A stretch of 64,000 bases of DNA from Proteromonas lacertae (Eukaryota). The notes below the pieces were generated by a model that worked only from the letters and a program-made list of their open reading frames with translations, searched no databases and was not told the origin of the DNA. The number at the start of each line of letters is the position of its first letter. Positions within the stretch are counted from its first letter, which is position 1. A program made the translations under genes and the position numbers. Shown here piece by piece: positions 28,438-33,884 of the stretch. The DNA lies in contig NGBS01000016.1 in NCBI GenBank assembly GCA_002245135.1, positions 1 to 64,000 of the forward strand, given 5' to 3'.

Positions 28438-31400
28438 ATGAGCTTTAAGTTTTTGTTAAAGTATAATTTTCTAAATCAGTTGAGATTATTGAAAGATGGT
28501 GAAGAATATAAGCTTAGCCATAAATCAACAAAGTCTTTTATCTTAATCAGAGATTGTTATGTAGATATATATAACGAGATGAAAAGATTAATACAAAAAA
28601 CGAATGAAACACATTTACAGAAATATCAAAATTGTTTTTTAATTTATGGGAATGAAAAAGTAGGTAAATCTACTTTGTGTTGTTTTTTGGCATATTGCAT
28701 GAACAATATTAAGGAGTTTGATAAGTATAATATAATAGTTTATGGAATGAGTAAAGTGGAGAATAAGCAGTATACTTACTATTGTAGATTGGCTTATACA
28801 AATGAATTTGTAGCATTCGAAAAAATTCCTGATTTTAAAAAGAATACAATAATTATTGATGATAATGTACAAATTCGAGAGGATGATTATAGTGATTGTG
28901 CTATAATCATAATGATAAGTTCACCAGATGCAGATAAGTACAAGATTATGGCTAATAAAAGAGCACCCATTCAATTTTACATACCACAGTTTAGCAAAAA
29001 AGAGTTGGATATAATTGTCAGTAAAAGCAAAAAAGGTGAAGAAAGAAACAGGATATTAACAGAAGCAATTGCATATGGATATAATTTACAAGCCTGTAAT
29101 AGATTAGAAAAACTAGGTGAATATATTAGAAAACATGGAACTGATGCAAGTCAATTTCCGTTATATATCCCTCCTAAATATGAAGAATCGCTCTTTATTT
29201 ATGACACTAACCAATTTAATATCATCCCTGACAAATTGAGGTATATATCCACAGAAATAGAAAAATATATACTGAATCATTACTTTAATACAAAAGACAG
29301 TTTTAAAATATTACACAATGTATTAACAGATAAGTTATTGAATGAAATACATCCAAAGATTTTTGAAAGGATGTGCCACATTATTTTTGAAGATGGTGAC
29401 TTTATAGATAAAGAATTAAATGATATATTGATGTTTTATTTACCTAAGAATAGAGAATATTCAAGGGATTTATTCTCATTCCTTACATATCTTCAGCAGG
29501 TTGATAAATTTAAATATTGTGATTCAAATTCAATTAAGAATTGTAGAATCATGAAAGCTTCATATGAAAGTGGAAGAATAAAAGATGGAAAAGTAGATGA
29601 TGGAATAATAGAAAATGCTATTATAGTGACTGACAAAGAATTAGGTCTTTTAACTCAGTACAATGAAATTAAAAACTGTGTAATGAAAGATCTGACAATA
29701 TCAAATGGAAATATAACAGACGGTGTAATTGTAAAAGGTGAAGTTGAAGGTGGAGTAATGTTTGAGTGCATTTATGTAGATTTTGGTAATATTAGTAATT
29801 TCCCAGCTATAGATGGATGTATTATTAACAAATTCAGTATAACAGGAGTTATAATGACAATATCCAATTCACATGCAACTAAAAACACAGTAATAACACT
29901 ACTTAGTGTATTATTTATAGAATTATACTTAAATAGTTGTTATATAATTATCATAAAGCAGATATAATCAATCATTTGAGAAGTATTAGAATTGATGATG
30001 CTAAAGGTAAAGATATTTTTGCAAAAGCACTATATCTTAATGGTTTCATTCCACAGAAGAAAAAAGAAAGTATAATAAAAGAAATGAGTGAAAGAAAGAG
30101 ACTATTTCATGAGAGTTATGTATAATATATAGTATTAATATATACATAATTCTGTAGTTTTTAATAAATGAACTTAATAATAGAAGAAAAGAATTCATAT
30201 ATAAAAATAAGCAAGGAGGTAAAAACAAAGTAGTTGATATATTTAAAGATGTTAAAGATCATTTTTTAAATGTTGAAAACAGTGATAATGCAATTTATAA
30301 TAGATTGATTGAATGTGAAAATGATTTACCAGATCTGAAAGATGAATCAATTAGTATTACGAATGATATTAATGAATATGAAAAAGAAATGAATAAACTT
30401 AAAGAATTAGATGAAGATAAAACATCTATTGATAATTTAGATAAAGAAATTAAAAAATTAAAAAAAATAAAAGAGAAGAAGAATAAAAACATCAAAATAA
30501 TGGAAAGAGATCTCAGTACATATACAGAATTGATACCAAAACTTAAACGACTCAATAATAAAGTGAAAGCTATGATCAAAAATAATAAATTATTCGCAGA
30601 TTTAGAAGATTATTTAATTGATGTCATATATCACGAGAAGAATACAGACAAAGAGAAAATGACCAAAGAGATTCTGGATGTATATATTTATGTATTTTTA
30701 TTTTCATCATAGTCGATTAAAAAAGAAATAAAATCATTGACAGATAGTAAAAAGGATAAATTTTTAAGAAAATTAGAGAATTGTAACCCAATATTTAATA
30801 TTGTGTTTGCTTCATACAAACATGATAAAGTAGAGACGAAACTTGAAGAAGGTGATACAGGGTTTGGACATTATGGAATATTTGTAGACATAATGACACA
30901 AGAAATGAACAAAGCATACAAGTGGATAGAACTAAAAAGTCAAAAAGTAATAATTTCTATAAAATCAAAACGATTAAGATTTTCCACCTGTAATATGAAT
31001 TCTAAATTATTCGATGACTATTTGGCATATTTAGAAAATATAGATGAGTTTAAACAATTTACCGAGAATAAACTATTTACCGAGAATAAACAAATGAGTG
31101 TCAATTTGAAAGGATATTCAGATACTTTAATAGATTTAATACCAAGCAAGGTTATAGAAAAAAGAATAAAACATAATTATGGAATATGTGAAACAATTAT
31201 TAAGGAAATAAGTGAAGGCATTAATGATGTTGGCATTGAGAAAGATTCAAAAGGTTCAAAAGATCTATTACTTGAGAAATGGAAAAAACTGGATGATAAT
31301 ATAGAATTAGATTATGATAATTCATATATAAGTCAATTAAAGTCAAAAATTGAAAAATTAGAAAAAGGTGATGTAATTAATTTAGATGATGCAATAAATC

Positions 31401-33884
31401 ATTTAAATGAAATAAATAAAAATATTAAATCATACAGTAAAAGTCGCAAAAGTATATATATTTATCTGTTATGTAAATAATAGCCAGTAATTCTATATGT
31501 AAAGTATTTGGAGATAAGAGTCCAAATTATGCAGATGGTGGTAGAACAATAGAAATTAAATGTGATATTTACCAATATCCTGAAAAGAAGGTGTTTATCA
31601 GAAATGTATATAAAGAAATATGGAAAGAATTGAAGCATCATATTTTATGTTATAAATTAGGTGATATGATAGACTGTAATGACTTAGATAAAATAAATAA
31701 AATCTGTAAAGAATTGGGTATTGGCAATGTTACAAAAGAAAATGCAAAGCAAAGAATTGATAAATATAAGCATAATGAAGATGCTTTACCTATATTATTG
31801 AGAGGAAATCCAGGTTGTGGAAAGACTTCGTTTATTATATATATCATACAAAGTATTATAGAGTTAAAAGGAAATATGGATAATGATATTAAAGTAGCAA
31901 TATTCAAAGCTGGTGAAAAATACCAATTAGAAGGTAATAAAGTGATAGACATTATAGATGCATACTTCGATATTGCTATATGTGATTCGTATGATATTCA
32001 AAGTGATGATTGTAACGCTTCTATAGTATTATATGTAACTTCACCAGATAATAAAAACTATTCCTCTTTTAATGCTTCAACCTATAATAAATTATGGTTT
32101 TATATGGATGTATTTGATGAAAAAGAAATAGCAGACTGGGAAATCCTCTGTTTACCTACTGAATTGAGAGATGTAGCAAGTAAATATAATAAAAGATATG
32201 GAAATGTTCCAAGACATATTTATTATGCAGCAATATATGATGTATGTTATAAAGATGATTATTGGATGAAAATTTATACGAAAGGTATTAAAAGAATAGT
32301 AGGTAATCTTGGTTACATGAAATTTCTAATGAAATATTTATATCCATGTAAATCAGCAGATGAAAAAATATCAAAAAGAGAAACAGATGTTTTTGACAGT
32401 ACTTTATGTCATTATATAGTCAAATATTCAATTCCCTTTAAAGATGAAGTGAATAAAATAAAATATTATGATAGAATCAATGAAGATCGAATGGAGTTTA
32501 TATCTGATGAAGTATATGATTTTATTTTTGAATGTATACAACACAAGGCAAATAAAGATGATGTTAAAGAAATTCAAAATTTATTCAATGAATTGTATAA
32601 TAATAATATAAAGAATGAACTTTTTCTACTGTTATTCAGAGAATTAGTTTGGTATAACTGTTTATACAATATCGATCAGATAGTTACAACAATCAATAAA
32701 AAGAAAATATCAATAGTAGAAAAATTTCGTGATAATTATGAATTTGAGATATTTAAATCCTTTTTTAAAGGAGATAAATATTCTATTAATAATAACCAGT
32801 ATTGTTTAGTTCATTTAGCTACTCTTGAAAATCGAGAAATGATATATTTAATGAATAATACTATAATACATGTAATTAATGATAATAGAAATGTATTAGA
32901 ATGTGATAATCAAATAAAAGAATGTATAAATGGTTTGAAAGAAAAAATGAGTTTTAGAAATATGTATTACATTGTAGTATCAATTAAACAGAAAGAAATA
33001 GTTACAAACACTCAATCTACATCTTCATTATCTCCTCAATCTAAAGTAATAGTGTGTTATTATGACAATGATGTATTAGCCTATTTTAAAGCCTTTGATG
33101 ATTTAGGATTTAAAGTAATAGTAGAAGAAGGAGATGAAAACTGTTTATTCCGTTCAATAAGTCGTCAAGTCTATGGAACTCCAGAACATTACATGGATGT
33201 AAGAATGAAGTATATGTATATTTTTTTCATTTTTTAGATGCAAATATATGGAAAAATGCAGAAAAGAAAAAGCAATAGATGGAACTTGGGGTGATAATCC
33301 AGAAATTCAAGCATGTTGCAAACTTTATAATCGACCAATCGAAGTTTGGACATATGAAAAAGGAATTGGTGTAAGAAAAATAATGACATTTCATAATGGT
33401 ACAGAACAATATCCAATTAGATTAAGTTATATTAATGGCAATCATTATAATCCATTAGCTACTGAAGGATATAATAATTGTTATATTACATTTCCACTTG
33501 AAGAATATGAAAATAATATATTATCATCAATTACTGCAACATCACCAGAGACAGTTGAAATGGATGATGAATTATTAACTGTATCATTGAAAGAGAGTCT
33601 AGATATTTCAAAGGAAAATGTGAAGGTAGATTCTTTTGATGTATATAAATATTTTATTTATTATTTAGAACCAACCACCTCCTCCACCTACATCTTCATC
33701 TTCTTCTGTAACATTCCCACTAAAAGTTGAATCTCAGATTCAAAATAATGACATTACATATTATAAATATGAATTTGGTAATGAAATATATGGAAGTAGT
33801 ATTAATATTATAATTGATAATTCAATAAATTCATCACTTTCAAATAAAAAAGTGAATGAAAATAAAAGAAAACTTAAAAAATAA
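28438..33884 (+). CDS. Crinkler/RHS-like protein B2: NTPase 1, beta-repeat insert, REase-fold domain, coiled coil, NTPase 2, C-terminal OTU deubiquitinase (spliced; 5' end uncertain)
   Basis: GNEKVGKS...IIIDDN...ISSPD; NFPAIDG...VIMTISNSH; GNPGCGKT...IAICDS...VTSPD...YGNVPRHI; OTU GDENCLFRS...WGDNPEIQA...LSYINGNHY. Four introns lie at positions equivalent to those of B1. Confidence 0.8.

Follow-up and report, generated by a model that had tools for sequence, protein, structure and literature searches.

A 64,000-nucleotide (nt) stretch of the Proteromonas lacertae genome (contig NGBS01000016.1 of assembly GCA_002245135.1, positions 1-64,000 forward; the window) contains a gene, B2 (28438-33884, + strand), whose predicted protein combines two homologous nucleoside triphosphatase (NTPase) modules that resemble AAA+/STAND ATPases, a long K/E-rich linker and a C-terminal OTU domain similar to that of the deubiquitinase OTUD5. 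The interpretation that we favor, with moderate confidence, is that B2 functions as a nucleotide-driven switch or scaffold of the kind represented by Crinkler and retrotransposon hot spot (RHS) proteins, with the deubiquitinase as an extra output. A paralog in the same window, B1, lacks the OTU domain.

The exon model for B2 was built from stop-to-stop open reading frames (ORFs) and a search for in-frame GT..AG joints. It describes a single open gene of 7 exons that, after predicted splicing, reads from an ATG at 28438 to a TAA at 33882-33884 through 1,752 codons without a stop. The features of B2, all on the + strand, are as follows.

28438-29907, 29937-30119, 30158-30679, 30713-31451, 31484-33209, 33238-33640, 33669-33884 (+): the seven exons, from ORFs and GT..AG joints
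28438..29907 (+): exon 1, module 1 (aa 1-490); an AAA+/STAND-like P-loop NTPase (fold tested on the B1 counterpart) leads into a helical region and, last, a beta-rich stretch that looks nuclease-like; insertions specific to B2 account for ~100 aa
28648..28671 (+): Walker A of module 1, GNEKVGKS, aa 71-78 (from the translation)
28846-28866 (+): Walker B-like strand of module 1, TIIIDDN (from the translation)
29800..29883 (+): nuclease-like motif FPAID..GVIMT..SHATK, aa 455-482 (from the alignment; low-confidence part of the model)
29908..29936 (+): intron 1, 29 nt, phase 0, common to B1
29937..31451 (+): exons 2-4, a K/E-rich, probably coiled-coil linker followed by a conserved middle block
30120-30157 (+): intron 2, 38 nt
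30680-30712 (+): intron 3, 33 nt
30785-30829 (+): NPIF.. motif of the conserved middle block
31452..31483 (+): intron 4, 32 nt, phase 1, common to B1
31484..33209 (+): exon 5, which encodes module 2 (the second NTPase, then a helical region and a beta-rich end) and continues without a stop into the N half of the OTU
31804..31827 (+): Walker A of module 2, GNPGCGKT, aa 1079-1086 (from the translation)
31969-31989 (+): Walker B-like strand of module 2, DIAICDS (from the translation)
33073..33209 (+): OTU N half, leading helix and Cys box GDENCLFRS, with the Cys1525 codon at 33142-33144
33210..33237 (+): intron 5, 28 nt, phase 2, in B2 only
33238..33460 (+): OTU C half, WGDNPEIQ and the His box NGNHYNP, with the His1616 codon at 33443-33445
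33461..33884 (+): C-terminal tail, an acidic UIM-like stretch (ubiquitin-interacting motif) and a P/S-rich and N-rich end
33641-33668 (+): intron 6, 28 nt, within the tail

The OTU domain and its joint to the second NTPase module

An initial annotation had proposed that the OTU continues in frame from the second NTPase, and the DNA sequence confirms this. One 586-codon ORF (31477-33237) runs from ahead of the second Walker A (31804-31827) to beyond the OTU Cys box. Given that these two motifs lie in one uninterrupted exon, the fusion is real in this DNA, and because the join falls within one ORF it needs no splice prediction. The B2 extension begins ~20 residues past the end of the region shared with B1 and comprises a leading helix, the Cys box (aa 1521-1529), the WGDNPEIQ box and the His box (aa 1613-1619). 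After the exon 5/6 joint the spliced frame remains open for 134 and then 72 more codons, which is unlikely by chance given a stop frequency in the window of 0.076 per codon (~2e-5 and ~3e-3, respectively). Third-position G+C of the OTU part (0.14) is close to that of the rest of B2 (0.09-0.22).

The two halves of the domain were scanned separately against the Pfam OTU family (PF02338), which has a gathering cut-off of 23.3 bits. The C half scores above this (24.3-24.5 bits, E 4-5e-5, profile positions 57/63-128); the N half matches positions 2-18 with 14-16 bits and is, alone, below the cut-off. The best solved relative of the C half is OTUD5 (3tmo, E 4.9e-9), and the N half has weak matches to OTUD3 and OTUD5 (E 0.055-0.19). 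The top PDB match of the N half, to a designed repeat protein (8g8i), was dismissed as a repeat-summed artefact in which every individual stretch has E>80. GDENC, with Cys1525, aligns to the Cys box of OTUD3 and OTUD5, and the His box of OTUD5 lines up with NGNHYN, which includes His1616. Both the D-x-x-C box and the His-plus-two Asn of OTU cysteine proteases are present. Both ends of the Pfam profile are matched, and the earlier assignment to the OTUD5-like type and the recognition of its Asp-Cys and His motifs are upheld.

Like the OTUD5/DUBA-type enzymes (PDB 3tmo, 3tmp, 3pfy), B2 has a D-x-N-C-L-F-R Cys box, an H-Y-N His box and a leading helix that aligns. It differs from them in that the OTU comes last in an NTPase protein of 1,500 aa and a shorter segment links the Cys helix to the WG motif. 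The initial annotation had noted that this segment looked shortened, and the alignment puts a number to it: 18 residues separate the matched stretches in B2 versus 34 in OTUD5, so the helical lobe is ~16 residues shorter. The lobe is incomplete relative to the family profile, with positions ~19-62 only partly covered, and the shortening falls exactly on the exon 5/6 joint. Intron 5, which occupies this joint, resembles the remaining B2 introns, and its excision is needed for the OTU frame; a 22-nt alternative would also keep the frame. Were intron 5 retained, the protein would be cut off directly after the Cys helix. Downstream of the domain, the B2 tail includes an acidic stretch followed by L-x-x-S-L-x-x-S (33563-33604, +) that looks UIM-like by eye and is not reported by Pfam. 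OTUD5 also has a C-terminal UIM.

Could the OTU be a decaying or non-catalytic remnant, so that B2 works as a B1-like double NTPase with, at most, a ubiquitin-binding appendage? The location of the missing helical-lobe residues precisely at an exon joint, the sub-threshold score of the N half and the lack of an OTU in all six relatives that cover the end of module 2 (see below) are what might be expected of such a remnant. However, none of the Asp, Cys, His and His+2 Asn motifs is missing, the frame has remained open through 134 and 72 codons in DNA rich in stops, and the C half stands above noise at 24 bits, with an OTUD5 match at E 5e-9. Compact viral OTUs are active. Overall, we consider a remnant unlikely.

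The duplicated NTPase modules and the paralog B1

Alignments were made of module 1 (A2: B2, B1, P0019 and P0020) and module 2 (A1: 17 sequences), along with a joint alignment (A4). Comparison of A2 with A1 using hhalign gave a probability of 97.5% (E 7.3e-12) over 156 columns, from the helix that precedes the P-loop through Walker A and the Walker B-like strand to an 'SSPD..Y' strand. This homology implies that the B2 protein contains an internal duplication. In the joint alignment, the Gly and Lys of Walker A (G54/K55) and the Asp of Walker B (D121) are invariant in both modules.

AlphaFold models are confident for the NTPase cores only. For B2 exon 5, the mean predicted local distance difference test score (pLDDT) is 59.7, with ~80 over residues 1-270, and for B1 module 1 (md36200913d1a) the mean is 65.4. 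Structure matches of both modules are to AAA+ proteins (Cdc6/Orc1, RFC, Mpa, TnsC), tied with Avs and NLR proteins. The models show an AAA+/STAND-like fold for both modules, in that their predicted core and helical lid resemble those of Cdc6/Orc1, RFC, Mpa, TnsC, Avs4/Avs5 and NLRs.

These structural matches raise another possibility, that B1 and B2 are STAND/NLR-like innate immune sensors in which ligand-triggered, NTP-dependent oligomerisation brings the B2 OTU into action. The Foldseek and VIA matches include Avs4, Avs5, NLRP9, NLRP3, ZAR1, RPP1 and NRC1, and the family sequences have weak nSTAND3 matches (9/17 for module 2, best E 0.002, and 1/4 for module 1). AAA_11, with matches in 10/17, is the other recurrent Pfam result; both are weak P-loop matches. 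Pfam detected no STAND-type repeats in B2 or its relatives. We regard a sensor of this type as quite improbable.

After the first NTPase and a helical stretch, the family has a conserved block, FPxID..(K/Q/I)xT..HxTK, in which the variable position reads VKIT in B1 and P0019, VQMT in P0020 and VIMT in B2, where an Ile replaces the polar residue. In the B1 model, the block is predicted as helix-strand-strand-helix-strand-strand-strand; the Asp immediately precedes a strand, and the Lys falls within the strand that follows. This order matches expectations for a PD-(D/E)xK nuclease, in a part of the model where pLDDT is only 30-60. The wider FPxxD...(Q/K)xT...H pattern may be comparable to motifs of Crinkler/RHS (CR) nucleases. 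The end of module 2 (..EMIY.(M/I)NN..IHV) is also conserved within the family. No known family was matched by the linker and middle block encoded by exons 2-4.

The paralog B1 is encoded on the opposite strand:

4049..9080 (-): B1 paralog, no OTU, from tblastn and a splice model
9080-7350, 7318-7127, 7092-6697, 6663-6075, 6042-4052 plus stop (-): the B1 exons

Searches of the window with the B2 exons (tblastn) return B1 as the one paralog (E 4e-39 for exon 1, 1e-9 for exon 4 and 4e-61 for exon 5). The spliced proteins, aligned with MAFFT, have 476 identities over 1,327 aligned positions (36%), and each motif that the initial annotation listed as common to the two was found in this alignment. 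The four shared intron positions that it reported are also borne out, as the B1 introns coincide with B2 introns 1-4 both in alignment column (684, 750, 927, 1183) and in phase (0, 0, 0, 1). B2 has two further introns, both inside its C-terminal extension. All ten mapped introns begin with GTAT, end with (T)AG and have 7-16% G+C; they range from 28 to 38 nt (29, 38, 33, 32, 28 and 28 nt for B2 introns 1-6; B1 examples are 7349-7319 and 6074-6043). Introns of 28-38 nt are typical of some ciliates. Together, the alignment and splice sites support the view that B1 and B2 are paralogs with a common exon structure.

B1 stops at a TAA (4049-4051) without an OTU, as had been noted before, and tblastn with the B2 OTU exons found nothing else in the window. 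The last ~100 residues of B1 have no Pfam match. The N-terminal ~200 residues are low-complexity and K/E/S-rich, as in P0019 and P0020. A short 5' exon carrying the start codon is probably missing from the B1 model, because the open frame has no Met ahead of the conserved core (no start codon was found in 9080-9700, -).

Relatives of the family and likeness to Crinkler, RHS and CifB proteins

The family is close to being an orphan: in 1.84 billion proteins, it has 15 relatives, all of them fragments. These come from a phmmer (HMMER) search of representative proteins with exon 5, which produced 18 matches: the 15 family members (77-828 aa, 31-47% identical to the query) and three ordinary OTU proteins that match the last 48 residues only. 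Word-indexed protein searches returned 4, 2 and 2 matches to the same few relatives, all from Logan read assemblies and without names or Pfam domains. The proteins of the window itself are absent from a 15-billion-protein collection. In JGI metagenomes, patterns for module 2 (A3) and module 1 (A2) gave 90 and 526 pattern matches, respectively, none of which are relatives. Three IMG/VR loci (L001-L003) match just 35 residues around the P-loop and were dismissed as generic. One relative, P0001, reads in frame (residues ~255-275) through the position of intron 4 of B2 and B1, which suggests that it derives from genomic DNA of a related organism with small introns.

Seven sequences cover the end of module 2 (B2, B1, P0001, P0002, P0003, P0011 and P0014). 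By alignment and Pfam, a recognisable domain follows in one of the seven, the OTU of B2, and in none of the other six; each relative is a fragment of one ORF, so that any exons further on would be missed, making this a weak negative. A candidate OTU in P0011, where MAFFT placed the tail 'NEENCL' (residues ~185-220) under 'GDENCL' of B2, was rejected as BLASTP and Pfam gave no support. The P0011 ORF ends where B2 has intron 5. The initial annotation had envisaged a polymorphic family with exchangeable C-terminal enzymatic domains. This part of its proposal is not supported: an OTU in B2 and none in six others indicates gain or loss of one domain rather than exchange.

What kind of family is this? 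The ESM Atlas was used as a lead, not a test, and its matches count as one source of evidence. Module 2 scores 0.93 (206-208/256 features), with three unnamed eukaryotic clusters at the top (commonest phylum Basidiomycota) and, at rank 5, a 'Crinkler (CRN) family' cluster with RHSP on 13% of its members. For B1 module 1, the same Crinkler cluster is on top at 0.96 (216/256), and trypanosome RHS scores 0.91. According to a review, NTPase + helix-turn-helix (HTH) + restriction endonuclease (REase) is the commonest architecture of Crinkler C termini, accounting for >1/4 of all (PMC5289972). The kinship of the modules to Crinkler/RHS proteins would fit this arrangement.

Like the CR modules, those of the B1/B2 family have a P-loop NTPase with helices after it and then a predicted beta-rich domain that bears an FPxxD...(Q/K)xT...H motif; their nearest Atlas clusters include CRN and RHS; and B1 and B2 form a divergent, multi-copy family. 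Unlike the CR modules, B2 has neither a header domain nor a match to Pfam RHSP, RHS_N or Crinkler, its modules are in tandem within one protein and an OTU is attached. Overall, it is probable that the B1/B2 family is kin to the Crinkler/RHS class.

The Wolbachia protein CifB provides a second parallel. One study describes four tandem REase-fold domains in CifB, two of them without catalytic residues, and repeated accretion of OTU or Ulp1 deubiquitinases; its authors trace the CifB nucleases to CR-NTPase8 + CR-REase7 elements such as Medea1 (PMC11342252). As we read B2, both proteins have repeated, partly inactivated nuclease-fold modules and a deubiquitinase in one polypeptide. However, CifB is a bacterial protein that has CifA as a partner; its OTU is N-terminal, and it contains four REase domains but lacks an NTPase. 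The likeness that we draw is one of architecture. A combination of two AAA+/STAND-like modules with an OTU is not described in the literature searched, which was thin on subscription journals, or among the few relatives. Among the literature matches listed, none mentions an OTU deubiquitinase jointly with a STAND NTPase or with 'retrotransposon hot spot'.

Proposed function and genomic setting

So, is B2 a switch that controls a deubiquitinase? In B2, both nucleotide-binding modules keep an intact Walker A and the Walker B Asp, the linker is long and charged, and the protease domain retains its catalytic residues. By analogy to AAA+/STAND and Crinkler/RHS proteins, nucleotide binding may govern how the protein assembles or engages its target. 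The domain that follows NTPase 1 may have a restriction-endonuclease fold, possibly weakened in B2, where Ile occupies the position of Lys or Gln in relatives. The output of B1 could be this nuclease-like domain, acting without a protease, and in B2 the OTU would take ubiquitin or ubiquitin-like modifiers off proteins in the vicinity of the assembled NTPase complex. The setting might be one of genetic conflict, as either a defence or a selfish element, although B1 and B2 may equally have an everyday role in the cell; for B1 and B2, a conflict or immunity role is something that we infer only.

Several observations weigh against this interpretation of B2. The OTU is short of ~16 helical-lobe residues and may be inactive, its frame depends on splicing of the 28-nt intron 5 that is predicted from sequence, and within the family it is carried by B2 only. 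The region that we call nuclease-like is modelled at a pLDDT of 30-60, so the terms 'REase' and 'inactivated in B2', while reasonable, are unproven, and the post-NTPase parts of modules 1 and 2 are not significantly similar by hhalign (probability 4.8%). Evidence for the Crinkler/RHS connection is also missing from profile searches. Pfam RHSP (PF07999), RHS_N (PF20445) and Crinkler (PF20147) had no matches at E<=10 in the 17 + 4 family sequences, PADLOC gave only P-loop matches (E 0.004-0.02, none significant) and a profile search of PDB sequences with the module 2 alignment (A3) gave nothing below E 0.13. Finally, no Crinkler header (Ubl-like) or secretion domain is present in B2, judging from the lack of a Pfam Crinkler match. 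The NTPase of B2 begins with a helix at aa 35, after 34 residues, and 70 residues precede its Walker A (aa 71).

A bolder version of the proposal holds that B1 and B2 belong to a chromosomal, toxin-like conflict family of protists, a eukaryotic CifB/Medea counterpart built from tandem Crinkler/RHS-type NTPase-nuclease modules, in which B2, with a dead nuclease, switched from cutting nucleic acid to stripping ubiquitin off host or invader proteins. We consider this a long shot. That the fusion is an artefact, with a misassembly or wrong gene model linking a separate OTUD5-like gene to an NTPase gene, is very improbable indeed: the junction, known from assembled DNA, does not lie at an intron, the module 2 end, ~20-aa linker, leading helix and Cys box follow one another in the 586-codon frame, composition is uniform and a chance in-frame join is unlikely.

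The window as a whole has 22-33% G+C and is dense in eukaryotic genes, including cullin-like, NMD3-like and CDK-like genes, a DEAD-box helicase, phospholipase B, kinases and a class C G-protein-coupled receptor (GPCR), broken up by very short introns. Long frames, including one of 3,223 codons, are open under the standard code. B2 is situated between a signal recognition particle (SRP) RNA gene and the phospholipase B gene, and no inverted or direct repeats that could signal a mobile element were found flanking it. The SRP RNA gene (27754-28037, +), just upstream of B2, best matches the Rfam model Plant_SRP (113.7 bits, gathering threshold 105, E 1e-30) rather than the Dictyostelium, protozoan or metazoan models.

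The window has further features. A multi-exon gene with a Q-rich end and no Pfam match is directly duplicated ~10.25 kb apart (54-3770 and 10292-14034, +), and the copies bracket B1. Their 5' parts are 95-100% identical and their 3' parts 70-77% identical (44-72% for the protein), which suggests recent gene conversion or a dynamic region. Within 49476-60271 (+), the 3,223-codon frame encodes eight periplasmic-binding-protein domains (Peripla_BP_5/6) and then a class C seven-transmembrane domain (7tm_3), making it an unusually long tandem-sensor GPCR. The same gene may include the ORF ahead of this frame (49476-50642), which matches the domain family weakly and below threshold (E 3.6e-4, 20.2 bits). 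Three paralogous ORFs (17213-18484, +; 21547-22203, -; 20735-21223, -) have in common a Cys-rich block (tblastn E 1e-24 and 5e-11) without a Pfam match, and make up a small local family of putative zinc-binding proteins.

If our interpretation of B2 is correct, two NTPase-nuclease-like modules joined to an OTU would represent a new domain architecture, in a family that is almost unsampled (of 1.84 billion representatives, 15 fragments belong to it, each from a raw-read assembly). It would carry the pattern of bacterial CifB, in which a nuclease-fold core accretes a deubiquitinase, into a eukaryote's own genome. B1, which has no OTU, and B2, with an OTU and an altered nuclease motif, would then constitute a natural pair for asking what the deubiquitinase adds.

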